Source of the DNA: Nitrospirota bacterium
GTDB lineage: Bacteria; Nitrospirota; Thermodesulfovibrionia; Thermodesulfovibrionales; JdFR-86
Length of the DNA: 64,000 bases
Direction: 5' to 3'
NCBI GenBank assembly: GCA_963721805.1
Contig: CAVRJY010000001.1
Span: 448,001-512,000, forward strand
Shown: in pieces, positions 926-63,159 of the stretch
How positions within the stretch are numbered: the first letter of the stretch is position 1
Layout of the letters: every line of letters begins with the position of its first letter
The notes under the pieces: generated by a model
Seen by the model: the letters and a program-made list of their open reading frames with translations, nothing else
Database searches by the model: none
Told to the model about the DNA's origin: nothing
Made by a program: the position numbers and the translations under genes

Positions 926-1118
926 TAATCAATGCCGTTGACCGCTCGCACGGTTACGCAGATGAAACTTAAAGCGCGAGAAATCGTCTTCAGACAAGGG
1001 GTGCCACGGGCACCTTTTACTTTAAAGGAGGGGCCCGTGACCCCCGCAGGTGTACTGAGACGTACTCCGAGGGAGATTTTCGGATGACGCAGTATGAAGC
1101 GATTTGGTGCGACTTTCC
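926..1118 (+). repeat. Repeat family A, copy A1 (divergent, with inserted B-type hairpins)
   Basis: TAATCAATGCCGTTGACC...AAAGCGCG..AAATCGTCTTCAGACAAGG...GTGTACTGAGACGTAC...ACGCAGTATGAAGCGATTTGG. Confidence 0.85.
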
Positions 1119-1136
1119 AATGAGCAGCGAATGAGT

Positions 1137-2462
1137 TTACTCTCCTTTAAGGATTTTCCAGAGTGACGTACGGGATATGCCGAGTATTTCCGCCGCTCTC
1201 GTGCGGTTGCCGCCTAACGATTTCACGACCTTCTCGGCATACTCCTTCACTACCGTATCGACCGGCTTGATCTCGTCCGCGCGGAAGGTCTCGACCCGGT
1301 GCATCGTGATGCCCTGCGGCAGGCTCGACGGGGTTATCTGCGGCCCCTGCTCGACGATGATCGCGCGCTCGACGATGTTTTCGAGCTCGCGCACGTTACC
1401 CGGAAACGTATAGCCCATCAGCACGCGCATCGCATCTTCAGAGATGGCCGTGATCTTCTTGCTGTACTTTGGCAGGTGTTTTTTTAGGAAGAACCTGCAC
1501 AGCGGGTCGATGTCCTCGGTGCGCTCCCTTAGCGGCGGGATGAAGATCTCCATCGTGTTGAGGCGGTAGTAGAGGTCCGCGCGGAACCCGCGCTCGGCGA
1601 TGAGCTGCTTGATGTTCTGGTTTGTCGCTGCGATGAACCGCACGTCGGCCCTCATCGCCCTGGTGCCGCCGACGCGCATGAACTCGCAGTCTTCGAGCAC
1701 GCGCAGGAGCTTGGCCTGAAGCGCCGGGGACATCTCGGAGATCTCGTCCAGAAACAGCGTGCCGGTGTCGGCGACCTCGATCAGGCCGGGCTTGGCGTTG
1801 ACCGCCCCGGTAAACGCGCCGCGCTCGTAACCGAAAAGCTCGCTCGCGAGCAGCTCCTCGGTGAACGTGGCGCAGTTGACCGCGAGGAACGGCTTGTCCC
1901 TGCGCGGGCCGGTGAAGTGTATGGTGCGGGCGACGAGCCCCTTGCCCACGCCGGTCTCGCCCGTGAGCAGGACATTGAACTGCGAGTCCCTGATCTGCTC
2001 TATGGTCTTAACGATGTGCTTCATGCCGGGGCTGGCCGCGACCATATTGATGTCGTTTTCGAAATTGAAGTAGGTCTTAAGCGCGATGTTTTCTTTCCTT
2101 AGGGCGTTGCGCTCCTCTATCTTGCGGACGCGCACGGCGAGGTCGTCCAGGTCGAAGGGCTTGGTGATGTAGTCGGCCGCGCCCTTGCGCATGGCCTCCA
2201 CCGCGGAGCTCACGCTGCCGTAGCCGGTGATGACGATGGCGAGCATCTCGGGCCATTTGGCGCGCGCATCCTCAAGCAGCTCCATGCCGCCGAGGCCCGG
2301 CATCTTGAGGTCCGTGATCAGCAGGTCGAACCGCTCGCGCTCGAGCGCCTCTGTGGCCTCGCGGCCGTCGCGCGCGCCCGTGGCCGAGTGGCCCTCCTCG
2401 GCGAGGGACTCGATGATGTTGTCGCGCGTGATGTCCTCGTCTTCGGCTACCAGAATCCTCAT
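1137..2462 (-). CDS. Sigma-54-dependent response regulator (NtrC family)
   Basis: Receiver domain, GETGVGK Walker A, GAFTGA loop, C-terminal Fis-type HTH. Confidence 0.95.
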   Translation of the reverse strand: MRILVAEDEDITRDNIIESLAEEGHSATGARDGREATEALERERFDLLITDLKMPGLGGMELLEDARAKWPEMLAIVITGYGSVSSAVEAMRKGAADYITKPFDLDDLAVRVRKIEERNALRKENIALKTYFNFENDINMVAASPGMKHIVKTIEQIRDSQFNVLLTGETGVGKGLVARTIHFTGPRRDKPFLAVNCATFTEELLASELFGYERGAFTGAVNAKPGLIEVADTGTLFLDEISEMSPALQAKLLRVLEDCEFMRVGGTRAMRADVRFIAATNQNIKQLIAERGFRADLYYRLNTMEIFIPPLRERTEDIDPLCRFFLKKHLPKYSKKITAISEDAMRVLMGYTFPGNVRELENIVERAIIVEQGPQITPSSLPQGITMHRVETFRADEIKPVDTVVKEYAEKVVKSLGGNRTRAAEILGISRTSLWKILKGE

Positions 2463-4024
2463 GCCTTGCGGTCGTCCTCCATCGTGGCACCGGGCAGGGT
2501 GATCGTGAAGATCGTCCCCTCCTCCTCGGCGCTCGCGGCGCGGATCTCGCCGCCGTGCTTGGTTATTATACTGTAAACGACGGCCAGACCGAGCCCGGTG
2601 CCCTTGTCCTTGGTGCTGTAGAACGGCTCGAATATGCGCTCCAGTAGCTTGTCCGGGATGCCGCGGCCGCTGTTGGCCACCTCCACGCTCACGCGGTCCC
2701 CGGCCGGTTCGACCGTCACGGTGATCGAGCCGCGGCCCCCCATGGCCTCGACCGCGTTCGTAAACAGGTTGATGAAGACCTGTTCCATCTGCGTCGGGTC
2801 GGCATGGATGCAGCGGGGCGCCTCAGGGGCGACCATGAGCGCGAACTCCACCTCCCGGACGTCCATGGAGTTTACGATGTAGTTATACGAGGTGCGGATG
2901 AGGGCCTCGAGCTCGATGTCCTCGAGGTGCGGCGCACGGGTGCGTGCGAACTCCAGCAGGTCGCCTACGATCTTCTTGACCCGCAGCGTCTGGCCGAAGA
3001 TGTCCTGCAGGCCCTTTTTCAGGACGGGGTCGCTCTCGAGGTCGATCTTTTTGTTGAGCCGCTGCGCGGTCGTGTAGATGTTGTTCAGAGGGTTGTTGAG
3101 CTCGTGCGCCACCCCGGAGGCAAGCGTGCCGATGGCCGAGAGCTTCTTGCTTTGAAGGAGCGCCTCTTCGTGCTCGGCGAGCTGCGACTCCATCTGGCGG
3201 TACTTGCGGATTATCACGTCGATCTCGTCGCGGTCCCCAGGCGCCTTTGCGGCCTCGTCCGAGCCGGAGGCGATATTAAAGCCCTTGCTGGTCTTCTCAA
3301 TCTGGCGCGCGAGCTCCGCGAGCCTCCGGGCGATGCTGCGGCCCATCAGCAGCGAGGCCCCGATGCCGAGGGCGAGGAAGGTGGGGAGGAAGATGCGCGC
3401 GGCGATCCGCGTGCGGAAGACCGCGCCCTCGGCCTCGGCGCGCGAGGCGCGGTCGAACTCGTTCGTGAGCGACAGGAGCGTCTCGCCTATCTTGCGCAGC
3501 TGCTGGACCTTGCTGCCGAGGGCGTCGCTAAGGCGCACGGCGGGGTCCGCGTCCGAGAGGCCGAGCCGGAGCTGAAGGACGTGCGCGGAGGCCGGCGGGT
3601 CTTCGAGGAACGTGCCCTCGACGTACTCGATCAGCGGGATCTCGCCGGGGCTCTGGCGCTTCAGGCTGTCCAGCGCGACGTGTATCGTCGAGGCCAGGGT
3701 GACGATCTCGCCAAACAGCGTATGGTACTCGGCCGTCTTTAAAGATATCGCGCGGAACCGCTGCTCCTCGCTTTTTGATAGCGCGGCCTCAAGCTCGGCG
3801 AGCGTGGCCTCGACCGCGCTGAGGTCGCTCTGCCTGCGGTAGAGGAAGAAGTTCTTCTCGTGGCGGCGCAGCTCCAGCGCGGTGTTGCGGACGGTGTCGG
3901 AGAGTTCGAGCGTGTATATCTCGCGGTCGATCTTCCCGATCTGCGCGAGGCTGAAAAATACGAGCGCGGTCGCAAGCGCCGCACCGGCGGAAAACGTTAC
4001 GAGCAGTTTCCTTCTCAGCGTCAT
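2459..4024 (-). CDS. Membrane sensor histidine kinase
   Basis: Two TM segments, H-box GVAHELNNPL, FEPFYSTK, GTGLGL; overlaps the regulator start. Confidence 0.95.
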   Translation of the reverse strand: MTLRRKLLVTFSAGAALATALVFFSLAQIGKIDREIYTLELSDTVRNTALELRRHEKNFFLYRRQSDLSAVEATLAELEAALSKSEEQRFRAISLKTAEYHTLFGEIVTLASTIHVALDSLKRQSPGEIPLIEYVEGTFLEDPPASAHVLQLRLGLSDADPAVRLSDALGSKVQQLRKIGETLLSLTNEFDRASRAEAEGAVFRTRIAARIFLPTFLALGIGASLLMGRSIARRLAELARQIEKTSKGFNIASGSDEAAKAPGDRDEIDVIIRKYRQMESQLAEHEEALLQSKKLSAIGTLASGVAHELNNPLNNIYTTAQRLNKKIDLESDPVLKKGLQDIFGQTLRVKKIVGDLLEFARTRAPHLEDIELEALIRTSYNYIVNSMDVREVEFALMVAPEAPRCIHADPTQMEQVFINLFTNAVEAMGGRGSITVTVEPAGDRVSVEVANSGRGIPDKLLERIFEPFYSTKDKGTGLGLAVVYSIITKHGGEIRAASAEEEGTIFTITLPGATMEDDRKA

Positions 4025-7449: not shown

Positions 7450-7527
7450 GGGCCGACTGGCCCCTTTCCTTCCGGCAATCGATCGGGCTGGTTGTCAGAA
7501 GCGCGCGAGTTAAGGTATGCTTTTCGC

Positions 7528-8385: not shown

Positions 8386-8394
8386 GAGCATTTT

Positions 8395-8671
8395 TTCAAA
8401 GCGCTCCAAATCGTTTGATACGTTGTTGGGCATCGAAGACTCGCCCTCGGAGTACGCCCAGATAAGAAGTGACCTTCTTCAAAGCGCGCCAAATCGCTTG
8501 ATACGTCGTTGGGCATCAAAGACTCGCCCTCGGAGTACGCCCAGATAAGAAGTGACCTTCTTCAAAGCGCTCCAAATCGCTTGATACTGCGTTGGGCATC
8601 GAAGACTCGCCCTCTATGTACGTCACAAGACGCCCCCCGCGCCCCACGAGGTCAAAGGCATTGATTAGAGC
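8395..8671 (-). repeat. Family A locus A2: three tandem partial copies, 83-bp period
   Basis: TTCAAAGCGC.CCAAATCG starts at 8395, 8478 and 8561; the third unit ends with GGTCAAAGGCATTGATTAGAG. Confidence 0.95.
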
Positions 8672-8758
8672 TATATAAAAAGGAAAGGGGGCAGGGGCCC
8701 CCTTTCTAGGTGAGCATGGTTTATGCCATGCGAATATGTAGAGGTGCCCGTGGCACCC

Positions 8759-14979: not shown

Positions 14980-16061
14980 TCCTGTTTCATCTTCCCGATC
15001 ACGGCCTCGGCCACGCGGGTGGTCGATACCGCGGTCGGGTCGTCGGGCATGGGCTTCATGTCGTATGTCACGTCTTTGCCCTCGGCGATGACAGCGGCTA
15101 TCGCGCCTTCCATCCTCGCCGCGGCCTGCATCTCGCCTATGTGGCGCAGCATCATGACGCCGCTGAGCATCATCCCGAAGGGGTTCATCTTGTTGAGGCC
15201 CTTATACTTGGGCGCGCTTCCGTGCGTTGGCTCGAACACAGCCATATTATCCCCTATGTTGGCCCCCGGCGCAAGCCCGAGCCCGCCGATCAGACCGGCC
15301 GCGAGGTCCGAGACGATGTCGCCGTAGAGGTTCGGCAGCACGAGGACGTCGTACAGCTCCGGCTTCTGCACGAGCTGCATGCACATGTTGTCTATGATGC
15401 GGTCCTCAAACTCGATGTCAGGGTAGTTCTTCGCGACCTCGCGCGCGACCTCCAGAAACAGCCCGTCTGAGTGCTTCATGATGTTGGCCTTGTGCACAGC
15501 CGTGACCTTCTTGCGCTTGTTGCGGCGCGCGTACTCAAACGCGAAGCGGACTATGCGCTCGGTGCAATGCACTGAAATGGGTTTGATACTGATGCCGCTG
15601 TCCTCGGAGATGACCTTCCCCGATGCGTTCTTGACGTAATCGATCAGGCCGAGCGCTCCGGGCGTGCCCTTCTGGAATTCGATCCCGGCGTAGAGGTCCT
15701 CGGTGTTCTCGCGCACGATCACGATGTCGATGTCCTCGTACCGCGTGCGCGCGCCCTTGAAGCTCCGGCACGGCCGCAGGCAGCTATACAAATCCAGCGC
15801 CTGGCGCAATGTCACGTTTACGCTCCTGAAGCCGGTGCCGACAGGGGTGGTGACAGGGCCCTTGATAGCGAGCTTGTTGCGCCTGATCGACTCGATCACG
15901 CGGTCCGGCATGGGGTTGCCTTCGGCCTTGAAGACGTCCTCGCCGGCCTCCTGCACTTCCCAGTTGAAAACCACGCCGGTCGCGTCGAGGACCATTCTAG
16001 TAGCTGATGCAATCTCCGGACCTACTCCATCACCCGGTATCAAAGTTACGTTATAAGCCAT
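14976..16061 (-). CDS. icd: Isocitrate/isopropylmalate dehydrogenase family, likely isocitrate dehydrogenase
   Basis: [51 protein letters not shown]. Confidence 0.85.
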
Positions 16062-16146
16062 GGTGAATAACCCTCCATCTTTTGGTTTAAATTGAACTCC
16101 AATTATCGCTTACAACCCCTTGGCATTTCAAGGTCGCGCACAGATG

Positions 16147-16328
16147 AAAGCGCGCCAAATCGCTTGATACTGCGTTGGGCTTCAAAGACTCGCCCTCTAT
16201 GTACGTCACAGTACACCATCGGGCGGTCTTCTCGCCCTGCCTTGTCTGAAGACGATTTGGGCGCGCTTTCGGGGGGCACGGAAGAAGTTCGCCCCCCGCG
16301 CCCCACGAGGTCAACGGCTTTGATTTGA
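16147..16328 (-). repeat. Family A copy A3 (full length)
   Basis: Near-identical to 49127-49298 and 50718-50896; reverse complement of 17990-18170. Confidence 0.95.
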
Positions 16329-16740
16329 GGCACGTTCGGATGCGCGGCTTAGGTATAGTTATGCATTCCGCGCGCGTGCGCGCGCATTTTTTTTAGAGCG
16401 TTCAAATGAACAAACAAAACAAGCTTTAACCCTGCGGAATTTCATTGCTTTTTGGCGACCTCCGTGTTCATGCGTTCAGAAACAGTTTTCACTCTGTCCA
16501 TCGGTCACTGTCGTTACTTTCAGCGCCATCAAAATGAGCATATCAGCCTCATCCCGTATTGAAGCACATCGAAATGAAAAATGCGATAACCTATGGTTTA
16601 TATATAAACCGAAGTTCATAGGAAAAATTGTCCCCCGTGCGTTTTCTATTAACTTTCGATTAACTGTGGTTAATGAGGGCGGAAACCACTGTGATAAATA
16701 TCTGGAATACTCTAGGCGGTTGTGGTATCTTTGAAGCATG
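16329..16740 (-). repeat. Family C arm attached to A3
   Basis: 16331-16390 and 16637-16740 are reverse-complement matches to 32205-32264 and 31857-31960; 16575-16635 matches 39497-39556. Confidence 0.85.
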
Positions 16741-16874
16741 TTATTAATTAGCGCAGCGGAAGAAATTATCCTGCTTCTATGAGAGCCAGTCATCCATAAT
16801 TATGTCGATTGGAACAATCAATCTATCCTCGCTGAAGATATTTTTTAAATCACAGTTATTTGAGGAAATAACTC

Positions 16875-17114
16875 ATGCTTATGGGTTTTGCGACTTTTTT
16901 TGGCTATGGTACATACATGCCAGCAGCGCTTGTTAATCTTCCATATACTTGGCAATACGTGATGTTTTGCTTATCAGGCATGATACCCGGGTTGATTTGC
17001 ATGATTAAACCAAAGACAGTTTGGTTTGTGATAACACTTCCTTTTACAATTTTTATAGTCGCACTCGACATCAGGGTTGGGATTTATGCGATAAGTGAAT
17101 ATTTGCACCGTTGA
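16875..17114 (+). CDS. Small AT-rich membrane protein (cargo)
   Basis: 79-aa hydrophobic ORF, GAGG RBS, composition unlike neighbours. Confidence 0.55.
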   Translation: MLMGFATFFGYGTYMPAALVNLPYTWQYVMFCLSGMIPGLICMIKPKTVWFVITLPFTIFIVALDIRVGIYAISEYLHR

Positions 17115-17173
17115 TTTATCACGTGTAACATTGCCATCAAGTATCAAAAATTAGAAAAAGCGACTGAAGATTA

Positions 17174-17346
17174 TCTAATCATGCCGTTGACCGTTCGCAC
17201 GATTAGACAGAAGTTAAACTAAAGCGCGATAAAGCGCGTCAGACAAGGAAGGGCGAGAAAACCGCCCGACGGTGTACTTGGGCGTACTCCGAGGGCGCGT
17301 CTTTGAAGCCATGACGCAGTATCACGCGACTTTAGCGCGCTTTAAA
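17174..17346 (+). repeat. Family A copy A4 (subtype a)
   Basis: CTAATCATGCCGTTGACCGTTCGCACGATTAG...AAAGCGCGATAAAGCGCGTCAGACAAGG...CACGCGACTTTAGCGCGCTTT. Confidence 0.92.
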
Positions 17347-17351
17347 AAAGC

Positions 17352-17927
17352 CTACGAATTCAGCTTCTTCAAGACCCACGCGAAATTGTCGCCCAGATTG
17401 CGCATCGTTTCGATGCCTTCCGTGTCATTGGAGACCTCGCCGGGATTCCTGCCCACGCCGATGTTCCAGTACGACGAGCCCGGCATCACCATCTGAGCCT
17501 GCAGGAAGAAGAAGTTCATCGAACTAAGCACGGTCGTGGCACCGGCCCTGCGCTCCGCGCATATCGACGCGCCGACCTTGCCCTTGAACATCCAGTCGTT
17601 GGCGCGCGAGACCATCCCGGCCCGTTCGATTAACGCCTTCATACCGGCCGACATGTCCGCGAAGTAAGAGGGCGACCCTAGTATTATGCCGTCCGCGGAG
17701 AGCATCGCCTCTATGCACTCGTTTACGATGTCGCCCTTTACGGCGCAGCGTTTGTCCTTGTGCTCGAAGCACTTAAAACATCCTATGCAGCCGCCCGGAG
17801 CCCGGCCCGCGAGTTCCAGCAGTTCTGTCTCTATGCCATTGACGCTTAACCGCTCGAATACCGTGTTTATCATCGTCGCGGTGTTGCCGCCCTTGCGCGA
17901 GCTTCCGTTGATAGCTATAACCTTCAT
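17352..17927 (-). CDS. Iron-sulfur flavoprotein / NADPH-dependent FMN reductase family, paralog 1
   Basis: INGSSRKGGNT, CxxCxxC...C, DGIILGSPSYF. Confidence 0.92.
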   Translation of the reverse strand: MKVIAINGSSRKGGNTATMINTVFERLSVNGIETELLELAGRAPGGCIGCFKCFEHKDKRCAVKGDIVNECIEAMLSADGIILGSPSYFADMSAGMKALIERAGMVSRANDWMFKGKVGASICAERRAGATTVLSSMNFFFLQAQMVMPGSSYWNIGVGRNPGEVSNDTEGIETMRNLGDNFAWVLKKLNS

Positions 17928-17989
17928 GTATAGTCCTCCTTGGTAGGATTATTCTCGCACATTTTAAGGGATGATGCTACGGGGGCTTC

Positions 17990-18170
17990 AAACTAATGCC
18001 GTTGACCTTGTGGGGCGCGGGGGGCGTCCTTCGGCCGTGCCCCCCGAAAGCGCGCCCAAATCGGCTTCAGACAAGGCAGGGCGAGAAGACCGCCCGATGG
18101 TGTACTGTGACGTACATGGAGGGCGAGTCTTTGAAGCCCAACGCAGTATCAAGCGATTTGGAGCGCTTTC
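17990..18170 (+). repeat. Family A copy A5 (subtype b)
   Basis: AATGCCGTTGACCTTGTGGGGCGCGGGGGG...CCCCGAAAGCGCGCCCAAATCG...CGATTTGGAGCGCTTTC. Confidence 0.95.
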
Positions 18171-18220
18171 AGAGAAGCCAACAAGCAGGTTTAAGTGAAA
18201 CTCGTGGTATACTAGTTGTT

Positions 18221-29886: not shown

Positions 29887-29972
29887 ATGAATATTCTCCT
29901 TACAGTTTAGGCTGTGCGCATAAACTGAAACATATCACGCGCACCGCCCAACAATCAAGGGGTGGCCGCTTT

Positions 29973-30040
29973 TTCAAAGCGAGCCAAATCGCTTGATACG
30001 TCGTTGGGCTTCAATTTTACCAAGCGGGACTCGCCCTCTA
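29973..30040 (-). repeat. Family A copy A6 (truncated)
   Basis: TTCAAAGCGAGCCAAATCGCTTGATACGTCGTTGGGCTTCAA...GACTCGCCCTCTA. Confidence 0.85.
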
Positions 30041-30080
30041 ATCACGTCTCGTTTGCGTGAGGGTTTGCCCCTTCATTGGC

Positions 30081-31083: not shown

Positions 31084-31122
31084 TTCTCATTCCCCGTCTG
31101 CTGCGCCGCGCCTAACCCCCGC

Positions 31123-31303
31123 AAAGCGTGCGAAATCGCTTGATGCTGCGTTTGGGCTTCAAAGACTCGCCCTCGAAGTACGTATCAGTACGTCGTCGGG
31201 CGTTCTTCTCGCCCTGCCTTGTCTGAAGACGATTTGGGCGCGCTTTCGGGGGGAGAGGATAACGGAAGCCCCCCGCGCCCCACAAGGTCAACGGCTTGAT
31301 TAG
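31123..31303 (-). repeat. Family A copy A7
   Basis: Full-length match to the A consensus ending GGTCAACGGCTTGATTAG. Confidence 0.93.
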
Positions 31304-31348
31304 AAAGGGCTACGCCGAATTAAATAGAACAGCCCCCCATTATTTAAG

Positions 31349-31783
31349 TTAGTAGCTTGGAGGCTTATCTGTACAAAAAACGGAAGGCGTTGCTTTAAAT
31401 ATATCTTTGACATCAATAGGCAGCGCAAGTGTAAAGGGCTGATGACTAAGATCCTTTGCGTAATTCTCAAGAACAGTATATGTATATACGCCGCCTTGCG
31501 TGTTCGCGATATCTAATATGACGCTTGAATTTACTATATCAACTTTAGCAGCATTTACGGCTCTTCCCCGACGAAAATCAAAAATCATGCTCTTTCTTCC
31601 GTTAAGGCTGAAAATTAATACCGCTTTGCCCGAAGCTGTTGCACATGCTGTATAAAAAACAGGCGTCTTGGTTTGTTGTAGCTCAGCAAGGTAATTATCA
31701 GCAACAATATTAAACACTTCATCCTGTCCAAGTGACACACCTGTTGCAAGAAACATGAACACCAAAGCTATGAGAGATTTCAT
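31349..31783 (-). CDS. Secreted hypothetical protein (AT-rich cargo)
   Basis: MKSLIALVFMFLATGVSLG signal peptide; low-GC codon usage. Confidence 0.65.
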   Translation of the reverse strand: MKSLIALVFMFLATGVSLGQDEVFNIVADNYLAELQQTKTPVFYTACATASGKAVLIFSLNGRKSMIFDFRRGRAVNAAKVDIVNSSVILDIANTQGGVYTYTVLENYAKDLSHQPFTLALPIDVKDIFKATPSVFCTDKPPSY

Positions 31784-31856
31784 AACAAAAGGTGACGGGT
31801 CTATTTTTCTATTGCCCTTTAAATGGCGCAAGCCAGTCATCATCCCATTGCGCATC

Positions 31857-32264
31857 ATGCTCCAAAGATACCACAACCGCATTGAGTATGCCAGAGAATT
31901 TAAAGCGAATGCCCCTATTTATTAACTATAGTTAGTCGAAAGTTAGTAGAAAACGCACGCCTACAAAATAATTTGCCAGATATAAACCAAAGTTTGGTGG
32001 TTCTTGGTGTATATTGATTTCATGAGCATTATATGCACATATTTTATAAGCGGGACGGCGAAGCGATCTGGTCTCGCCGCCTGTTCGGATAATGGGCCAA
32101 AAACCGCGCTTTTTATCCGAACATCCGAACATGAGACTCGCAAACAATTTAACGATTCCAATATGTTAGCCTCGTTTTTACGCCCGACATCCGAACAGAA
32201 TCGGCAAAAACGCGCGCGCATGCGCGCGGAATGCGTAACTATACCTAAGCGCGGACATCCGAAC
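31857..32264 (+). repeat. Family C arm attached to A8
   Basis: Reverse-complement similarity to 50897-51230 over most of its length and to both ends of 16329-16740. Confidence 0.88.
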
Positions 32265-32440
32265 ATGCCGTTGACCACGTGGGGCGCGGGGGGCCTCCTT
32301 CGTCCGTGCCCCCCGAAAGCGCGCCCAAATCGGCTTCAGACAAGGCAGGGCGAGAAGACCGCCCGATGGTGTACTGTGACGTACATAGAGGGCGAGTCTT
32401 CGCAGCCCAACGACGTATCAAGCGATTTGGAGCGCTTTCA
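32265..32440 (+). repeat. Family A copy A8
   Basis: ATGCCGTTGACC...CGATTTGGAGCGCTTTCA. Confidence 0.95.
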
Positions 32441-32636
32441 AATCCGTATGACTATGTCATTGAAGGAGGCTTGCGGTAATTATTATACTATTGACTATAT
32501 GAACGAACCCTGATCCATCTGCTAATTATAGCCGTGTGCTGTTCTGCAGCCTCCCCGTACTTGGGCGGCTGATTGCCGTTCAGAGATTTCCGACGCCACA
32601 GGTACCTACTCCCTCTGCGGTGACAGTAAAGCTACC

Positions 32637-38063: not shown

Positions 38064-38080
38064 TCGATAATCGCCCCCTC

Positions 38081-38250
38081 TTTCAAAGCGCGCTAAACTC
38101 GCGTGATACTGCGTCAGGGCTTCAAAGACGCGCCCTCGGAGTACGTCTCAGTACACCGTCGGGCGGTCTCCTCGCCCTTCCTTGTCTGACGCGCTTTATC
38201 GCGCTTTAAATTTCAACTGCCTAATCGTGCGAGCGGTCAACGGCATTGAC
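38081..38250 (-). repeat. Family A copy A9 (subtype a)
   Basis: Reverse complement closely matches A4. Confidence 0.93.
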
Positions 38251-38300
38251 TTTATCCAGCGTTGGTGCGAAAATCGGACATATTCCAAGGAGGAATTAAT

Positions 38301-38876: not shown

Positions 38877-38886
38877 GGGGGCGGTT

Positions 38887-39062
38887 CTAAAGCCGAGCTA
38901 AATCGCTTGATGCGTTGTCGCGGCGTCGGAAATCCGTCCTCGATGTACGCCTAAGTACACCGTCGGACGTTTTCCTCGCCGATTCTAGCCTCAAGACGAT
39001 TTATCGCGCTTTAGTGTGGCCCCTGCCTGATCGCGCGAGTGGTCAACGGCATTGATTAGAGC
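38887..39062 (-). repeat. Family A copy A10 (divergent subtype a)
   Basis: AAAGCCGAGCTAAATCGCTTGAT...GTACGCCTAAGTAC...GATTTATCGCGCTTT...GGTCAACGGCATTGATTAGAG. Confidence 0.85.
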
Positions 39063-39178
39063 GGCCTAATTGCTGCCGCCCCGTGGAAGTGTGTCAATAG
39101 GAGTTCATCATTTCAAATAAATAGGCTGTACTGTTATTCCCTATATAATTTCAGAGAACGGGGGTGAGGTAAACGCTA

Positions 39179-39415
39179 TTATCCGGAAGAGTTAATTTTC
39201 CTTCTTGCCATGTCCACTACACGGTGGACGTCTCCAAGACATCACTTTCCGAGAGGATTAGTAAGGTGACAGTGACAGGCACCTTTCTGTTTCTCGGCTT
39301 TTATTCTGTTTAGGATAGAAGATTCGCCATTATTGGCAATAACATCGGCCTCGATATCGGATTCCGTATATCCGAAGCAGTAGCAAATTTGCTTATTTTC
39401 CTTGAGCAGCTTCAT
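39179..39415 (-). CDS. BFD-like/CopZ-type [2Fe-2S] small selenoprotein (in-frame UGA at 39242-39244)
   Basis: MKLLKENKQICYCFGYTESDI...GACHCHLTNPLGK-U-CLGDVHRVVDMARRKINSSG; the UGA sits at the first Cys of the NPxGxCC motif. Confidence 0.82.
39203..39239 (-). promoter_or_regulatory. Putative bacterial SECIS element
   Basis: TCTTG..GTCCAC-CGTGTA-GTGGAC..CAAGA stem-loop; loop starts 18 nt after the UGA and has G at position 2. Confidence 0.75.
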
Positions 39416-39465
39416 GCATGATTATAACATGGCCCAATCATACCAACAAAATTTGGCCTCTTTTC

Positions 39466-39556
39466 ACTAACTATAGTTAACCAAAAAATTCACGCGCATC
39501 AATTTTTCCTATGAACCTCGGTTTATATATAAACCGTAGGTTATCACTTTTTTCAT
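39466..39556 (+). repeat. Short family C arm attached to A11
   Basis: TAACTATAGTTA palindrome and CGGTTTATATATAAACCG palindrome; reverse-complement match to 16575-16673. Confidence 0.85.
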
Positions 39557-39750
39557 TGGGGGCGCGGGGGGTCGGCGGCGGAGCCGCGTTAACCCCCGAA
39601 AGCGAGCCGCAATCGGCTTCAGACAAGGGGGACGGTTGGCCCCAGTCTTTTAGGCGAGGTGCCCGTGGCACCCCGATGGTGTACAGTGACGCACATGGAG
39701 GGCGAGGCTTCGAAGTCAACGAAGTATCAAGCGATTTGGTGCGCTTTGAA
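39557..39750 (+). repeat. Family A copy A11 (with B-type hairpins inserted)
   Basis: GGGGGCGCGGGGGG...GAAAGCG..AATCGGCTTCAGACAAGG...GTATCAAGCGATTTGGTGCGCTTTG. Confidence 0.9.
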
Positions 39751-39824
39751 AGAGGAAGCGTTGACATTACCAGAGAAGCTTGCTTTAATTAACGGTACAT
39801 TCCAGTTCACAGGAGGCTATTAAC

Positions 39825-41142: not shown

Positions 41143-41149
41143 GGGGTGC

Positions 41150-41352
41150 GAAAGCGCACCAAATCGCTTGATACTGCGTTGGGCATCGAAGACTCGCCCT
41201 CTATGTACGCCCAAGTACACCATCGGGGTTCCTCGGGCACCTCTCCTGAAGAAAGGGCCAGTCGGCCCCTTGTCTGAAGCCGATTTGGGCGCGCTTTGCG
41301 GGGAGTAGCGAAGCCCCCGCGCCCCCAAGCCCCCAAGGTCAGTGGCATTGAT
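41150..41352 (-). repeat. Family A copy A12 (with B-type hairpins inserted)
   Basis: GAAAGCGCACCAAATCGCTTGATACTGCGTTGGG...AAGGTCAGTGGCATTGAT. Confidence 0.92.
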
Positions 41353-41358
41353 ATGAAA

Positions 41359-46258: not shown

Positions 46259-46277
46259 TTCATTCCCCTCCCGATCC

Positions 46278-47044: not shown

Positions 47045-47136
47045 AGCCGTTGACCTTGCGGGGGGCCGACTGGCCCATCTCACTATTCGCGGGGTCATGG
47101 ACCCCTCTCACTATTCGCGCCATAGCGCTCATCTCT
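47045..47136 (+). repeat. Family A 5' stub followed by repeat family B copy
   Basis: GCCGTTGACCTTGCGGGGGG then GGGGCCGACTGGCCC..CTATTCGCGGGGTCATGGACCCC.. Confidence 0.85.
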
Positions 47137-47140
47137 TATT

Positions 47141-47316
47141 AAAGCCTTTGACCTTGTGGGGTGCGGGGGGCTTTTTTATTCTCTCCCCCCGAAAGCGCGC
47201 CCAAATCGTCTTCAGACAAGGAACAACGAGCGGACCGCCCGGAGGCGTATATAGACATACGTCGAGGACGAGGCCGCGAGTTGTGACGCAGTATCAAGCG
47301 ATTTGGGGCGCTTTCA
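47141..47316 (+). repeat. Family A copy A13
   Basis: GCCTTTGACCTTGTGGGG...GAAAGCGCGCCCAAATCGTCTTCAGACAAGG...CGATTTGGGGCGCTTTC. Confidence 0.9.
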
Positions 47317-47325
47317 AAAAACCAT

Positions 47326-49119: not shown

Positions 49120-49126
49120 GGCTTTT

Positions 49127-49298
49127 AGAAAGCGCTCCAAATCGCTTGATACTGCGTTGGGCATCAAAGACTCGCCCTCTATGTACGTCACAGTACACCA
49201 TCGGGCGGTCTTCTCGCCCTGCCTTGTCTGAAGACGATTTGGGCGCGCTTTCGGGGGGCACTGCAAAGAACGCCCCCCGCACCCCGAAGGTCAACTGC
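49127..49298 (-). repeat. Family A copy A14
   Basis: Near-identical core to A3 and A15. Confidence 0.95.
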
Positions 49299-49407
49299 TC
49301 AGTTGGATGAATTATTGAGCGTGTTAGCCTCATTCCGTATTGAATCATATGGCGGGGCCGAAAGTCGATAAAGCGGAGCTGATGATCTGACAATAAATTA
49401 CGGGTGC

Positions 49408-50667: not shown

Positions 50668-50717
50668 CGTCAGAAATCATATCATTTGCGCATAAACGCG
50701 GGCAAACGGTGAGTGTT

Positions 50718-50896
50718 AAAGCGCTCCAAATCGCTTGATACTTCGTTGGGCATCGAAGACTCGCCCTCTATGTACGTCACAGTACACCATCGGGCGGTCT
50801 TCTTGCCCTGCCTTGTCTGAAGACGATCTGGGCGCGCTTTCGGGGGGCGAGGATGACGGACGCCCCCCGCGCCTCGTGGTCAACGGCATGATTTGA
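50718..50896 (-). repeat. Family A copy A15
   Basis: Full-length match to the A consensus. Confidence 0.95.
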
Positions 50897-51230
50897 GGGC
50901 CGGTCATACGCATATATACGCATACCGCGCGCGCGTTTTATTTTATGTGTTCGGATGTTTGAGGCAAATAAGCGGATAATCCTATGGAAAACATCGTTTT
51001 TCTGAGTCCGGCGCTGTTCGGATGTTCGGATAAAAAGCGTGAGATTTGCCGATCTATCCGAACACCCGGCGCAACCTCTTGCTTCCCCCGCCCCGCCCAT
51101 CAAAAATGCTCTTATCTTACTCATGCCACCACTATACACCAAAGACCACCAAACTTTGGTTTATATCCACCGAAAAAAATAAGGTCCGTGCGTTTTCTAT
51201 TAACTTTCGACTAACTACTGTTAATTAAGG
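50897..51230 (-). repeat. Family C arm attached to A15
   Basis: TGTTCGGATGTTCGGATAAAAAGCG, ACCACCAAACTTTGGTTTATAT, CGTGCGTTTTCTATTAACTTTCGACTAACTACTGTTAAT; inverted match to 31915-32230. Confidence 0.88.
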
Positions 51231-51402
51231 GCTCTTTGCAACGGAAAAGATTGGCTTAAATGCGATAGCTGCTTATGCTAATGGCAGGGTGGACAAAGGC
51301 ATAACCCATACCGCAAGCTCAGAGCTCTCCCACATCAGAAATCGGGCTCCGCCCTATTTTCCCACAGAACCTTTCTTTTGTGGAATTATTTATAATTTGT
51401 GC

Positions 51403-51648
51403 ATGCCCAATGTGCTCAGAGTCGGGAAGTACAGGTTTTTCTTTTTCAGCAAGGAGGGCGGTGAACCGCCGCACATACATGTCGAATCAGGCGATGATTA
51501 CGCCAAGTTCTGGCTATCGCAACTTTCTCTTGCAAAATCCATAGGGTATAATAGTAAAGAACTCGGGGAAATACGGATTATCGTCGCGGACAACGTCGAG
51601 ATGATGAAGGAGAAATGGAATGAGCACCTCAACCGCAAAATCGGCTGA
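51403..51648 (+). CDS. DUF4160 protein (putative toxin of a TA-like pair)
   Basis: MPNVLRVGKYRFFFFSKEGGEPPHIHV..AKFWL..WNEH. Confidence 0.88.
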   Translation: MPNVLRVGKYRFFFFSKEGGEPPHIHVESGDDYAKFWLSQLSLAKSIGYNSKELGEIRIIVADNVEMMKEKWNEHLNRKIG

Positions 51649-51859
51649 ACCCATGGCCAGCGCGGTCTGGTTCGACGCGGACAAGCTCCATGTGCGCCTG
51701 CTCGACGGCAGGGAGATAGGCGTCCCGCTTGAGTGGTTCCCAAGGCTCCGCGACGCGTCCGAGGCCCAGCGCGCCAATTGGAGGCTAATCGGCAGGGGCA
51801 TCGGCATACATTGGGACGAGATCGACGAGGACGTTTCGGTGGAGAGCATCCTGTCCTGA
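51620..51859 (+). CDS. DUF2442 protein (putative antitoxin)
   Basis: V.LLDGREIGVPLEWFPRL..A...R.NW..GIHWDEIDEDVSV. Confidence 0.9.
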   Translation: MSTSTAKSAEPMASAVWFDADKLHVRLLDGREIGVPLEWFPRLRDASEAQRANWRLIGRGIGIHWDEIDEDVSVESILS

Positions 51860-51950
51860 GTTGACCGCCCTCGGCGTGGGCATAATGCGGAGAACAAGGC
51901 GGCCCTATTTCCTGTATTAAATGTGGTTGGTGAGAGGTAAAATCGGAAAG

Positions 51951-52616
51951 ATGGTCACTGACGAATTTCACTTCGATTTGAACGCAAAGCGCACTCGCCT
52001 TAGCGACGACGATCTTATGATCGCATTGCAGTCTGCTGCTGAGACGCTTGGTGAGGGTTACTTTACGTCCATACAATACAATGCACTCCCCGGAAAACGG
52101 CCTCATTCTGACACAATAAGCGATCGCTTCGGTTCATGGAAAAAGGCACTGACACTCATTGGAATCGCTGGAGGTCGAGAAAGAAAGTATTCGCCCGAAA
52201 CGCTCATTGACAATATAGAAAACATTTGGAGGAAGTTGGGTTATCCGCCTGGCAAGAGGCAACTCTCAACCTGTGGGGAGAGAATTTCCGAGTCTCCATA
52301 CAAGAATCACTGGGGTAGCGTGCGTGCCGCATGCGAAGCACTTGAAGAGTTTCACTCTGGAAGAATCTCAAGAGAGCAACTGCTCAAAGGTAAGCCTAAT
52401 GAACCAACCCGTACAACAATCCCGTTGAAAGATAGATGGGCTGTATTGAAGCGCGACAACTATAGTTGTGCAAAGTGCGGTGCAAGCCCATCCAATGATC
52501 ACAACGTTGAACTAGAGGTTGACCACAAATTCCCCGTCGCAAGAGGTGGAGAAAATAGCCTTACTAATCTTCAAACACTCTGTCGAAAATGTAACCAAGG
52601 GAAGAAAGACAGATAA
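51951..52616 (+). CDS. HNH endonuclease with N-terminal homing-endonuclease-associated repeats
   Basis: Repeats ending RFGSWKKAL and HWGSVRAA; VLKRDNYSCAKCG, LEVDH..P..GG, NLQTLCRKCN..K. Confidence 0.88.
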   Translation: MVTDEFHFDLNAKRTRLSDDDLMIALQSAAETLGEGYFTSIQYNALPGKRPHSDTISDRFGSWKKALTLIGIAGGRERKYSPETLIDNIENIWRKLGYPPGKRQLSTCGERISESPYKNHWGSVRAACEALEEFHSGRISREQLLKGKPNEPTRTTIPLKDRWAVLKRDNYSCAKCGASPSNDHNVELEVDHKFPVARGGENSLTNLQTLCRKCNQGKKDR

Positions 52617-52689
52617 TTCCGGCCAACAAAAGACTGTTCAGCAGTCCACTCGAGTAGAAAATAGGAACGGCTCTATCCAATCAAACCCC

Positions 52690-52855
52690 TTCAACGGGGG
52701 CGCGGGGGGCTCCGTTATCCTCTCCCCCCGAAAGCGCGCCCAAATCGTCTTCAGACAAGGCAGGGCGAGAAGACCGCCCGATGGTGTACTGAGACGTACA
52801 TAGAGGGCGCGTCTTCGCAGCCCAACGCAGTATCAAGCGATTTGGAGCGCTTTGA
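52690..52855 (+). repeat. Family A copy A16
   Basis: GGGGGCGCGGGGGG...CGATTTGGAGCGCTTTG. Confidence 0.93.
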
Positions 52856-52865
52856 AGAAGGCAAC

Positions 52866-54373: not shown

Positions 54374-56764
<2,391 letters not shown>

Positions 56765-56766
56765 CG

Positions 56767-57599
56767 ATGACGCGCAAGGTGAGCATAGGCGGTGTCGAAA
56801 TCGGGGCCCGTGGCCCCTTGCTGGTCATCGCCGGGCCCTGCGTGATCGAAGACAAAGAGACGATGATGCAGACCGCAGCCGAGATGCGCGACATTTGCGC
56901 CTCACTTGGACTGCCGTTCGTGTTTAAGAGTTCATACGACAAGGCCAACCGAAGCTCGGTCATCGTCCCCCCGCGGCCCCGGCATCGAGGCCGGGCTCGC
57001 GATGCTCAAAGAGATAAAAGACGCGCTCGGCGTGCCGGTCTTAAGCGACGTGCACACCCCCGAGGAGGCCACTGCGCGCGGCCAAGGTGCTCGACGCGCT
57101 GCAGATCCCGGCGTTCCTGTGCCGCCAGACTGACCTGATAGTCGCGGCCGCAAAGACAGGCAAGCCGGTCAATATCAAGAAGGGCCAGTTCCTTGCGCCC
57201 TGGGACGTCCAGAACATCATCGAGAAGGCCCGCTCTACCGGCAACGAAAATATCATGCTCACCGAGCGCGGGACTACGTTTGGGTACGGGAACCTCGTCG
57301 TGGACTTCAAGGGCGTGGCCCTGATGCGCACGTACGGGTATCCGGTGATATTCGACCTCACGCACAGCTTGCAGCTTCCGGGTGCTCAGGGCACGTTTAC
57401 CGGAGGCGAGCGGCAGTACGCCGCGCCGCTGATGCGCGCGGCATGCGGCGCGGGGATAGACGGGCTGTTTATAGAGGTCCACCCGGAGCCCGAGCGCGCG
57501 CTGTCGGACAAGACGACGGTGCTCCCGCTCTCTGACGTGCGCGCGATGCTCGAGGTCGCGCGCGACATACACGCGATAGTGAGGCGGGGCGGATTATGA
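56767..57599 (+). CDS. kdsA: KDO 8-phosphate synthase with frameshifts near 56960 and 57080
   Basis: [56 protein letters not shown]. Confidence 0.93.
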
Positions 57600-60276: not shown

Positions 60277-61944
60277 CCTCATCCTTCTGGCCGGTGCGCT
60301 ATGCGCCGCGCTGATACTTGCCGTCTCATTCTCCTGGGCGCAGCCGGCCCCGGGCTACCTCGACAAGCTCCTGGACCGCGGCCTCTCGACGGACAGCTAC
60401 GAAAGCCGCGTGCTGATGCAGCAGGCCTCCGAGGCCCACGGCGGGGACGCGGCGCGGCTGCTCGCCGATGCGGCAGCGATAAGCCCGGACCTCCCGGCCG
60501 TGCATTTGCGGCTCGCGCTGGCGGCCCTGCCTGACGCGTTTGAGTCGCTAAGCGAGCTGATCGCGGCCGGCGAGGCCTACAAGCACAGCTTCTGGTGGTC
60601 GATGAGCCTGCGCGCAAGCGCGCTGCAAGCCCTCGTGGCCGCCGTCATGCTCGGCCTCGCGGGGCTGATCGCGATCAGGCTTACGGTCGACCTGCCGCTT
60701 TTGATGCACGATATCAACGAAAAACGCGTGCGCCTCATCCTGCCTGCCCTGATGCTCCCGTTTTCGCCCCTGGGGCCGGCCCTCGTGCTGCTCGCTGCGC
60801 TTATGACCGTCTGCCTGTATGCGCGCAAGGGCGTGGCGGTGTTCTATCTGGCGGCGGTCTTCGCGGTAGCGCTGCCCGCGCTCCAGGGCCCGCTCGATGA
60901 CGCGTACACCGCCAGCATGCCCCGGATGGCCGCGATAGTCGGCGTCAACGAGGGCTCGACCAACCGCTACGCCATAGGCGTGCTTGCGGGGCACGACGAC
61001 TACATGTCGAGGTTCGCTTACGGCCTGGCGCTCAGGCGCGACGGCCGCATAGAGGACTCGGTCGCGGTATTCCGCAAGCTGCTTGCCGAGACGCCCGATG
61101 ACGGCCGGGCGCTGATAAACCTCGGCAACGCGCAATTCGCCGCCGGCCGCTTCGCCGAGGCGCGCGACTCATACCAGAAGGCGTACGATAGCTCAAAGAC
61201 CGTCGTCTCGGCCTATAACCTGGCCATGGCCTCGCGCGCGCTTTTCGATTACGCCTCGGGCGACAAGTTCTACGCCGAGGCCGCGGCGCTTGACGCCCAG
61301 GTGGTGTCGGCCTTCAACTCCATCGCATCCAAAAACCCGAACCGGACCGTCATGGACTCGGTCTTCACCCACGCCGAACTCGAGGACTACATCGCGCATA
61401 ACGCCACTAATGCGGCCTCGCTCTACCCGCTGGGCGGCAAGGCCGCGATGGCCGGGGCCGGGGTGCTGGCCGTGATATTCACGGTGCTCCTGTTTTCGGG
61501 CATCGGGCTTGCGGGCCGCTGCACGAACTGCGGCAAGGTGCTCTGCGAGCGCTGCGCGCCGACGAGGAACTATGCCGGCAAGTGCGCCTCGTGCCACAGG
61601 CTGCTTGCGGAGTTCGACGACACCAGCCCGAGGGCCAAGGTGGCGCGCATGCTCTCGTCCATGCGCATCAAGGACAAGATGCGCGACCGCCTGAAGGCGC
61701 TCTCGTTCGCCCCGCCGGGCATCGCCCAGATATTCGCCGGGAAGCTCTTGGAGGGTTTCCTCTACCTCACCGGGTTCCTGTTTCTGGTATTCGCGGCCAT
61801 ACTCGCGGCCGACCCCATCTTCACGGTCGGCCTCGCGGGGCTGACCCACCTCTGGCTCACGCCGCCCCTGGCGGCCGCGGCGGCCTGCTGTATCTGTTGT
61901 CATTCATGTCCGTAAACCGGAGGCTCGAAATCGGATGGCTCTAG
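60218..61944 (+). CDS. TPR-containing membrane protein (frameshift near 61885)
   Basis: TM segments, ALINLGNA TPR, CxxC..CxxC..CxxC; the shifted frame ends LLYLLSFMSVNRRLEIGWL. Confidence 0.75.
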
Positions 61945-62972
61945 AGGGATCGCTCAGGGAGTTCAGCCTCGCCGACATATTGCAGCTCCTGCACTTCCAG
62001 CGGAAGACCGGGGTGCTCACGATCGCGGGCAAGTCCGACAAGATCCGGCTGATGTTCAACGAGGGCCAGATAGTCGCGGCCGAGAGCCAGAAGCGCGACG
62101 TCGCGGGGCGCCTGGGCCGGGTGCTGGTATCGCGCGGGATCATAACCGAGGACTCGCTCGAGCAGGCCATCGAACGGCAGAAGGACTCGGGCATGCGCCT
62201 CGGAGAGATACTCATCGCCGACGGCCGCGCCACGCCCGAGGACATCAAGGGCGTGCTCTCGTTTCAGATCACCGAGGCAGTAAACCAGCTCTTCACCTGG
62301 AAGGAGGGCCGGTACGACTTCACCGCGCAGGCCGTGCCCGTGGACCAGGAGCTCTCGGTGAGCCTCGATACGCAGCACGTCCTGATGGAGGGCCTGCGCC
62401 TCCTTGACGAATGGACCCAGCTCGGGGACATGATAAACGTCGATACCGTATTCGTCCAGAGGGAGAACCCCGATGCCGAGGTCACGGACGAGGAGCAGCG
62501 CATACTCGCGTTCGTCGACGGCGCAAACGACGTCGGCACTATCGCGGACCTCACAGGCATAGACAGCTTCAACGTCTCGATGCTGCTGCTGGGGCTCATA
62601 CAGAAGGGCAGGGCCGCCAAGAAAGAGGCGATTACCGCGCAGTCGGTCGCGGCGGTGCGCATCTACATCCCGCCGCCCCCGGTGCCGCAGCTCACGCTCA
62701 TCCTCGCCCTGATGCTGGCGGTATCGCTGGCCATAAGCGTGGCGCTCGTCTGGGCCACCGGTGACGTGCGGGCGTTTAAGGCCGCAACGCAGATAGACCG
62801 CATTCGCACCTCTGTCGAAATGCAGCAGCGCATGAGCGGCTCGTACCCGGCGGCGATAGAAGGCACTGACCCGTGGGGGACGCCGTATGTATATCAAGCG
62901 ACCGCGCAGGGATTCACCATCTTCTCCGCAGGGCCGGATCGCACGCCCAACACGCCGGACGACATCCACTAA
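61935..62972 (+). CDS. DUF4388 domain protein with GspG-like C-terminus
   Basis: MALEGSLREFSLADILQLL..KTGVL, RLGEIL, W.EG.Y.F; DPWGTPY..IFSAGPD..DDI. Confidence 0.85.
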   Translation: MALEGSLREFSLADILQLLHFQRKTGVLTIAGKSDKIRLMFNEGQIVAAESQKRDVAGRLGRVLVSRGIITEDSLEQAIERQKDSGMRLGEILIADGRATPEDIKGVLSFQITEAVNQLFTWKEGRYDFTAQAVPVDQELSVSLDTQHVLMEGLRLLDEWTQLGDMINVDTVFVQRENPDAEVTDEEQRILAFVDGANDVGTIADLTGIDSFNVSMLLLGLIQKGRAAKKEAITAQSVAAVRIYIPPPPVPQLTLILALMLAVSLAISVALVWATGDVRAFKAATQIDRIRTSVEMQQRMSGSYPAAIEGTDPWGTPYVYQATAQGFTIFSAGPDRTPNTPDDIH

Positions 62973-62986
62973 ATCGTTTTCAATCC

Positions 62987-63159
62987 AAAGTCGCGTTAAA
63001 TACGCGTGATACGTTGTCAGGCCTTCAAAGACGCGCCCTCGGAGTACGTCTCAGTACACCGTCGGGCGGTCTTCTCGCCCTTCCTAGTCTGACGCGATTT
63101 ATCGCGCTTTAAGTGGCTGATGCGGGATCGTGCGAGCGGTCAACGGCATTGATTAGAGC
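62987..63159 (-). repeat. Family A copy A17 (subtype a)
   Basis: Close to A9; ends GCGAGCGGTCAACGGCATTGATTAGAGC. Confidence 0.92.

Follow-up and report, generated by a model that had tools for sequence, protein, structure and literature searches.

We analysed a 64,000-nucleotide window (64 kb; C1:448001-512000) of a Nitrospirota genome, assembled as nine contigs of 2.78 Mb in total with approximately 60% G+C (GC), and followed up a dispersed structured repeat, family A, that an earlier note on this DNA had described. The genes of the window are those of an ordinary chromosome (topA, dprA, argG, uvrC, pdxA, two-component systems and cytochromes), and the copies of family A are intergenic (Table 1). 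A repeat scan of the window returned families of 109-176 nt with 60-100% identity. An nhmmer search that used the copy at 16121-16335 as the query gave 20 matches, which correspond to 17 loci on both strands, the same count as in the earlier note.

Two rounds of nhmmer found 239 matches genome-wide, 172 of them near full model length, with 129 on the plus strand and 110 on the minus strand and a density of one copy per ~12 kb. The matches are distributed over contigs C1 (136), C2 (37), C4 (32), C5 (28), C6 (3) and C9 (3). Contig C5 (97 kb) carries one match per 3.5 kb, approximately three times the density of C1, and may be an accessory replicon or region. The family A unit is ~190 bp long and consists of a core hairpin of ~123 nt, much larger than a repetitive extragenic palindrome (REP), as had been claimed, followed by a lineage-specific 3′ extension. 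The two subtypes reported previously, there as 5′ subtypes, were recovered in the 3′ module that follows the core: among the 184 copies having that end, 121 were subtype b, with a G-run hairpin, and 54 were subtype a, while 3 had another type and 6 had no motif.

The core forms one long imperfect hairpin that runs from AAAGCGC to GCGCTTT with a GTAC-N6-GTAC apex. This closing stem and apex were both confirmed by folding, covariation and RNAalifold. The two strands of one copy folded with energies of -89.2 and -96.2 kcal/mol (z = -4.9 and -6.6 compared with shuffles). By contrast, the inner hairpin GGGCG-N7-CGCCC of the earlier description did not hold: among 176 distinct full copies, this local pairing showed no compensated change and 31 A-C breaks, whereas GGGCG of one arm pairs with CGCCC of the other across the apex, with C-G in 114 copies and T-A in 29 at pair 46/76. 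Because the cross-apex pairing is compensated and the local pairing is not, the core is a single long hairpin. RNAalifold recovered this hairpin from the 15 window cores, with 26 pairs, 10 of which had compensated changes; run on all 176 copies together it gave almost no structure, owing to alignment noise. Some stem positions carry uncompensated subfamily mismatches, such as T-C in 64 copies.

Stem pairing within the genome was maintained through double changes, including all three that had been pointed out before. The AAAT/ATTT stem alternates between C-G (95 copies) and T-A (39), the CTT/AAG stem alternates between T-A (114) and G-C (51), and the apex changes (TGTAC/GTACA to CGTAT/ATACG) are present in the copy at 47131. 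Further compensated pairs had G-C in 108 copies and A-T in 41, or C-G in 159 and T-A in 15, with few intermediates. In 15 window copies, 14 pairs had double changes, compared with a shuffle mean of 4.0 (0 of 500 shuffles reached 14) and 3-9 for slid controls. Because repeat copies share descent, we also counted events on a tree of 176 copies (FastTree tree, Fitch parsimony). This count gave 55 same-branch compensatory doubles with pairing kept, compared with 6-18 for partners slid by 1-3 columns and a mean of 4.0 (maximum 21) for 1000 partner shuffles; the tree comes from the same columns and is poorly resolved, so that the absolute number of events is uncertain but the contrast with the controls is not.

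To search related genomes, we used a covariance model of the core, R1 (123 positions, 43 pairs). Of 150 other genomes sampled within the phylum, 29 gave full-length matches at E ≤ 0.001. By family code, the positive genomes were 10 of 11 in f22, 6 of 18 in f23, 3 of 3 in f3, 3 of 6 in f16, 2 of 7 in f18, the single genome of f27 (17 matches) and 1 of 3 in the genome's own family; R1 scored at most the best 23 candidates per genome, so that copy numbers in relatives are at-least values. Nitrospirota genomes are listed in a table that forms part of PMC12306157. The cross-genome alignment, made with the model, comprised 56 matches from 51 loci (11 loci and 40 further examples). Double changes occurred in 41 of the 43 pairs, with 605 double-change cells compared with 185 after shuffling, and 87.8% of cells were paired, compared with 32-47% for slid partners. 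The covariation score was 0.603, compared with 0.163 for shuffled and at most 0.139 for slid partners, and many pairs displayed all four Watson-Crick types. Thus, the compensatory changes described in the earlier note are real within the genome, covariation is overwhelming across genomes, and base pairing as such is maintained. Sequence is conserved across families at a few unpaired or apex positions: the GTAC apex stem, a CCTC bulge and a CCTTG stretch.

The relatives are visible only with the covariance model, as a plain DNA search matched 0 of 40. An exact-pattern scan of 185,579 species genomes gave one chance match, in a Vibrio. Rfam gave no match in the window at gathering scores, and a permissive scan of 16050-16750 gave only E ≥ 6. 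A blastn search of plasmids and phages had no match to the repeat, and we found nothing on this element in the literature. The hairpin is an uncatalogued, phylum-wide and old family.

Stem mismatches bear on whether DNA or RNA is selected, because G-U should be much less harmful than A-C to a fold under selection as RNA. In this genome, A-C mismatches on the sense strand (197) outnumber G-T mismatches (86), an excess due to a few subfamily columns, and across genomes the two are equally common (71 G-T and 60 A-C). This balance leans toward DNA rather than RNA as the selected form, although it is not proof. On the cross-genome counts, and with no Rfam match, the suggestion that family A might be a multicopy non-coding RNA was not supported, nor was it refuted.

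Comparison of related genomes showed that the element is mobile. In genus g45, we examined two element-bearing loci and searched three congeners. At the first, the element of G064 is absent from G047 and G086, in which the flanks abut; at the second, the element of G047 is absent at the same place in G086, G102 and G064. The insert consists of the hairpin and a 3′ tail of 35-50 nt, conserved in that lineage. The insert at the first locus begins directly after a TGA stop codon, and neither empty site had a clear duplication. Presence and absence at orthologous sites indicate that the element spreads as DNA. Copies in relatives also occur in tandem, and in G086 one hairpin (L076:234-356) is inserted in the apex of another (host copy at approximately L076:180-420). 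One DNA metagenome run contained 0.18 of the sampled words and gave thin, broken contig cover; its four joints all involved repeats or short sides and so carry no information on excision or empty slots.

In addition to being a phylum-wide mobile family, the repeat has two features that the first reading missed: strict polarity toward AT-rich cargo and an arrangement in head-to-head slots. Both the a and the b module terminate in the 12-mer GGTCAACGGCAT, the head motif, and copy-to-copy similarity ends immediately past it. When one mismatch is allowed, the genome has 202 occurrences of the 12-mer, of which 152 fall in copies, compared with ~12 expected by chance; a scan with a 10-mer was too noisy. 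A metagenome scan with a 22-nt head pattern gave two matches without a hairpin, which we took as chance. The mean GC content was 0.513 in the kilobase beyond the head and 0.616 in the kilobase before the tail, and the head side was lower in 154 of 172 copies (p = 2e-26). Over six contigs, neighbouring copies were oriented +- in 60 cases, -+ in 58, ++ in 34 and -- in 26. The 60 head-to-head neighbours include 52 gaps of 0.3-6.1 kb, of which 48 have a GC content of 0.56 or less, whereas tail-to-tail gaps have a median of 10.3 kb and a GC content of 0.625.

The window contains a duplicated slot with different contents. Its two flavin mononucleotide (FMN) reductase genes are 88% identical, and the unit at 17172-18179, a gene between two family A copies, is duplicated at 38079-39062. 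Homology between the two loci (~1 kb, 77.5%) extends from the tail of the preceding copy to the head of the following copy and then stops. Past the head, each locus has an AT-rich gap closed by an inverted copy, and the two gaps are unrelated. Because homology ends at the repeat ends, the repeat borders are the borders of the duplicated unit, and the contents of the slots differ.

We then scanned the cargo of 52 gaps, covering 122 of 136 open reading frames (ORFs) of at least 70 aa; the others were 7 ORFs of the GC-rich gap 41359-47130, treated with the window genes, and 7 repeated copies of insertion sequences (ISs). Seventy-one of the 122 had no Pfam family. The others consist mostly of toxin-antitoxin pairs (ParE/Phd, MazEF-type, HepT/MNT, Gp49/HTH and DUF2442/DUF4160), restriction-modification genes (an MmeI-type enzyme and a methylase-Mrr fusion), and Abi_C, HEPN, KAP NTPase, HNH, PLD and GNAT proteins. 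Apart from IS transposases, the 122 ORFs included no recombinase. One 4-kb islet holds three toxin-antitoxin pairs separated by units of a small AT-rich hairpin, an a-type module and the head motif, and these internal units are a short cassette array. Because the a-type module and head occur there with a small AT-rich hairpin, the head module can join different hairpins. Such units without the 123-nt core were seen at L029:836-960, 1605-1750 and 2210-2350 and in L068 (C1:39630-39720).

A module of ~370 nt lies directly at the head in 26 of 54 head-to-head pairs, on one side and never on both. It exists in two forms, X (15 pairs) and X′ (11 pairs), which share a layout and differ in their repeats. 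The layout comprises a terminator-like hairpin, short direct repeats (four or five) and a distal block of repeats, and the first cargo gene beyond the module is co-directional. Module X ends on its cargo side in a TTAAC-rich motif of ~45 nt (16635-16679, 51186-51230, 30072-30115 and 31918-31961) that lies just before the first cargo gene, and module X′ has three GGAAC-N2-GTTCC palindromes in its place. Both look like operator sites.

Taken together, we give a probability of roughly 50% to the reading that family A represents, in locally amplified form, a non-autonomous foldback DNA element that is found across the phylum and in this genome forms slots for accessory cassettes. The element, a ~120-nt hairpin with a lineage-specific 3′ tail, would move as DNA and be mobilised in trans by some enzyme. 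This enzyme would probably recognise the hairpin, once it is extruded from supercoiled or single-stranded DNA, along with a few conserved bases of the loops and apex; recognition of the hairpin itself would explain why pairing is kept while the letters of the stem drift. The element would insert without clear duplication, often immediately past the stop codon of a gene in the same orientation. Here, the GGTCAACGGCAT end would have become a joint for attaching foreign AT-rich cassettes, and two inverted copies would make a slot. The contents of a slot would probably be exchanged by recombination in or at the repeats, either through homologous recombination of one ~190-bp copy with another once DNA has been taken up, or through a cut at the head motif made by XerC/XerD or by some other enzyme. 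Selection as DNA rather than RNA, the trans-acting enzyme and the route by which cargo enters are the parts of this reading that we infer. A stronger version, in which family A is an undescribed cassette-capture system whose ~50 dispersed two-sided slots swap toxin-antitoxin and defence cassettes without an integron integrase and whose hairpin is a new class of mobile DNA, seems to us somewhat unlikely.

Several observations weigh against this reading of a foldback element with slots. The empty sites are limited to two loci of a single genus, and precise deletion could give the same picture; the copies compared for insertion polymorphism were those of genus g45 rather than those of this genome. 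The cross-genome alignment of 56 matches was fitted to the structure of the model, which favours pairing. No enzyme is linked to the element, and we found no linked REP-associated tyrosine transposase (RAYT) or integron integrase in the genome. Except for ISs, no cargo occurs twice at high identity, and movement of cargo within this genome was not seen. The subtypes pair in slots as expected for random draws (ab 24, bb 19 and aa 6), which means that the copies bounding a slot do not move together as a fixed pair. Finally, copies are oriented relative to genes. In this genome, 92 of 174 copies follow the end of a co-oriented ORF with high GC content at third codon positions (within 60 nt), 43 of them within 12 nt, and in relatives the 5′ side was nearer the co-oriented stop in 12 of 12 copies between two gene ends. 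A pure DNA element does not require such a bias toward the transcript, and selection at the RNA level may contribute.

The same orientation bias lends weight to the rival idea that the hairpin is an RNA-level element, selected at the 3′ ends of mRNAs as an exonuclease stabiliser, a processing or termination signal, or an insulator against foreign genes, with its high copy number a by-product. In relatives, a long co-oriented ORF ends within 40 nt of the 5′ end in 24 of 55 copies and at 0-9 nt in 20 of 55, whereas the ends of convergent genes on the 3′ side are spread over 3-36 nt. Strong covariation together with conserved unpaired bases would also fit an RNA, as would the terminator-like hairpin and T run with which module X opens at the head. 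However, a divergent gene start adjoins 57 of this genome's 174 copies, and no gene would be expected to read through into these (25 are in neither category), and the hairpin has no T run of its own. The mismatch counts given above and the lack of an Rfam match do not favour RNA, and presence and absence at orthologous sites imply spread as DNA. On balance, we regard selection as RNA as unlikely. The stop codon before the copy is TAG in 50 of the 92 copies that follow a co-oriented gene end, a sign that the T-rich leader of the element often provides this codon or selects it.

The sharp change from conserved to unique sequence after GGTCAACGGCAT raises the question of whether the head and hairpin are instead an attC-like or dif-like site, at which a tyrosine recombinase moves circular cassettes at ~100 places. 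The abundance of the 12-mer, largely within copies, and the toxin-antitoxin array with mini-hairpins and head motifs inside one islet would fit such a site. So would cargo types like those of chromosomal integrons and two nearly empty head-to-head dimers, with the heads overlapping in one and 53 nt apart in the other. Host XerC/XerD would be the sole obvious candidate enzyme: among seven tyrosine recombinases, XerD scored 335 bits (cutoff 329.6) and an XerC-like protein 332.6 bits (cutoff 335.15). The best integron integrase score was 126.5 bits against a cutoff of 265, however, and the remaining tyrosine recombinases and one serine recombinase lie at least 13 kb from any copy, and no recombinase is near any array. 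The sites face each other rather than one direction, inspection of the head region by eye did not reveal a 28-bp dif-like site with two arms, no excised or empty form was seen in the thin cover of the one metagenome run, and the hairpins of relatives in other genomes have neither head nor cargo. We therefore consider site-specific recombination at the head improbable.

Inverted copies bracket cargo in 52 places, which could also mean that each pair forms the long terminal inverted repeats of a composite or cassette transposon, a non-autonomous mobile insertion cassette served by a transposase in trans. In line with this idea, the core in G003, a member of the genome's own family, lies within a ~180-bp unit that has 16-bp terminal inverted repeats and, in 3 of 4 copies, 4-bp direct repeats, and the genome studied here has three active IS families. 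However, the flanks in this genome, where target-site duplications might have been expected, had none around pairs or single copies. For 48 head-to-head pairs, the longest word shared by the outer flanks had a mean of 5.08, equal to the null of 5.08; for single copies, a shared word of at least 10 nt was found in 2 of 169 (one of 16 nt), compared with 7 of 400 in the null. Matched slot ends were rejected, as pair ends are drawn at random from a and b. The lack of repeated cargo other than ISs and the ~80 copies that stand singly also argue against paired ends, and the ends of the IS200-type, IS481-type and IS30-type elements are all unlike the repeat. We consider this arrangement very unlikely.

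The sole Y1 family of the genome is of the IS200 type, with six identical copies, a 144-aa transposase and matching GC-rich hairpins at both ends. The copies (C1:42301, 366622, 1252034 and 1452182, in L002-L005; C4:138543 and 146508) directly follow TTAAC or CTAAC at their insertion points, most of them in AT-rich islets, and 4 of the 6 lie inside head-to-head islets. Their end hairpins are not part of family A, and the candidate link to a Y1 transposase of the HUH class was rejected. Y1 genes are present in 104 of the 150 other genomes of the phylum, and the hairpin-positive genomes G003, G047, G052 and G035 have no Y1 match. Thus, the Y1 transposase is a passenger, and the idea of an HUH-transposase substrate failed on both counts. 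No TnpB-type zinc ribbon was found in the genome. An IS of the IS30 family (1096 bp) is present in seven copies, six with identical transposases and one at 99.7% (for example, L040:47-1142, C2:367110-368205), and in 5 of the 7 it lies at exactly the same place in the hairpin arm. This repeated use of one arm position means that the hairpin is a specific DNA target of at least one transposase, and the IS appears to be specific for the repeat.

Among known systems, REPs and the bacterial interspersed mosaic elements (BIMEs) built from them were named in the earlier note. A REP unit is a palindrome of 20-40 nt, and IS1397 and IS621 insert site-specifically in REPs. Family A resembles the REPs, BIMEs and REPINs of Proteobacteria in being intergenic, high-copy, often at gene ends and mosaic with other motifs, in its compensated hairpin and lack of target duplication, and in being a hot spot for site-specific insertion of a particular IS. 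These parts of the comparison stand. The assignment itself does not, as the family A hairpin is too long at ~123 nt, no single-copy RAYT flanked by repeats is present, and one end is polarised toward foreign DNA. Bacterial foldback miniature inverted-repeat transposable elements (MITEs) include Correia/NEMIS, RUP and ERIC. Family A is like them in its length of 100-200 bp, its non-coding sequence and long inverted arms, its nested and tandem copies, its polymorphism between congeners and, in G003, the larger unit with terminal inverted repeats and 4-bp repeats. It differs in having no duplication here and none clear at the two empty sites, in having no parent IS among resident ISs, and in keeping its structure across families of the phylum while the stem sequence is replaced; we know of no MITE family noted for such conservation. 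Family A acts like a REP/BIME or a foldback MITE but fits the definition of neither. Elements of the latter kind are reviewed in PMC3184786.

The slots invite comparison with cassette systems. Family A is like an integron attC site in being a structured imperfect palindrome behind a gene whose structure is more conserved than its sequence, and the cargo is like integron cassettes in its toxin-antitoxin, acetyltransferase and small unassigned genes and in the internal array of one islet. It differs from integrons in lacking IntI, in its dispersed, inverted sites rather than an array in one direction, and in having no R-box that we could see by eye. The pdif modules of Acinetobacter plasmids are Xer-dependent and bounded by inverted sites. 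Slots of family A likewise hold accessory modules between inverse sites with no enzyme inside, in a host that has XerD and an XerC-like protein, but their bracket is a ~190-bp structured repeat rather than a 28-bp site, and they are chromosomal and number ~50. Mobile insertion cassettes, such as the qnrD cassettes (PMC3913671), are a third case; the slots are similar in that cargo without a transposase lies between inverted repeats, and they differ in having no duplications, unmatched ends and no IS with these ends.

If the reading of a foldback element with slots is true, mobile hairpins of an uncatalogued family are present throughout the phylum, and their fold has been preserved much further than their sequence, which would point to an enzyme that reads structure. 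The element would then also serve as a scaffold, with defence and toxin-antitoxin cassettes held in ~50 small slots of the core genome that are marked by the same repeat end. Acquired genes would have a form of organisation additional to integrons, genomic islands and Xer modules, and the repeat end would be a marker of the accessory genome in metagenome-assembled genomes of the group. Family A is also a test case for whether covariation in a palindrome arises from selection on DNA, selection on RNA or mutational bias.

Table 1. Family A copies and AT-rich islets in the 64-kb window (positions are those of the window)
Feature	Position	Strand	Context
Copy, subtype a, variant apical insert	922..1126	-	Head left toward small hairpin units at 849-947; tail 11 nt from stop of co-oriented sigma-54 regulator gene (1137-2462)
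Three tandem 83-nt partial units (core left arm only), then b-type tail and head	8390..8672	+	Begins 5 nt past stop of gene 7492-8385; left-arm units at 8381-8629 threefold, 78-100% identity
Full copy, subtype b	16125..16331	+	Core hairpin 16147-16269; head joins module X directly
AT-rich islet, GC 0.398	16332..17171		Between head-to-head copies; first ~370 nt is module X, with GTTCGGATG-type repeats, terminator-like hairpin 16369-16385 and TTAAC-rich distal motif 16635-16679
Copy, subtype a	17172..17352	-	Tail touches stop of FMN reductase gene (17352-17927)
Copy, subtype b	17986..18179	-	With copy 17172-17352 flanks FMN reductase gene, direct orientation
Partial copy, left arm only	29963..30050	+	
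Copy, subtype b	31122..31306	+	Downstream of co-oriented sulfotransferase-like gene
AT-rich islet, GC 0.422	31307..32256		One 177-aa ORF without family match; module X on right side, minus-strand reading
Copy, subtype b	32257..32455	-	Head joined to module X
Copy, subtype a	38079..38254	+	Begins 16 nt past stop of gene 36591-38063
Copy, subtype a	38880..39062	+	Begins 4 nt past stop of second FMN reductase gene (38262-38876)
AT-rich islet, GC 0.405	39063..39553		Between head-to-head copies; cargo unlike paralogous slot 16332-17171
Copy with apical insert, without canonical head motif	39554..39755	-	
Copy, subtype b	41148..41358	+	Begins 6 nt past stop of gene 40609-41142; small hairpin units after head, no AT-rich cargo
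Copy, subtype b, many compensated stem changes	47131..47325	-	Tail touches uvrC stop (47326)
Copy, subtype b	49122..49307	+	Adjoins uvrC start
Copy, subtype b	50711..50898	+	Head joined to module X
Islet, GC 0.49	50899..52673		Module X and HNH endonuclease gene (51921-52616)
Copy, degenerate head motif	52674..52863	-	
Copy, subtype a	62978..63159	+	Begins 6 nt past stop of gene 61935-62972; head opens islet of GC 0.36 that reaches an inverted copy outside the window

In a second repeat family of the window (849-947, 8673-8760, 35598-35696 and 47060-47158), the unit is a small GC-rich hairpin with a conserved GCGAATAG-type linker behind it. These hairpins occur in arrays of two or three that adjoin heads without cargo, and their stems resemble the end hairpins of the IS200-type element. 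In two other regions (52915-54268 and 56029-57599), a PALP-domain gene appears as two overlapping ORFs (profile positions 4-75 and 78-295), and a DAHP-synthase domain is likewise divided over two overlapping ORFs, one of which also has a GATase domain; these splits could be frameshifts, assembly errors or artefacts of ORF calling.

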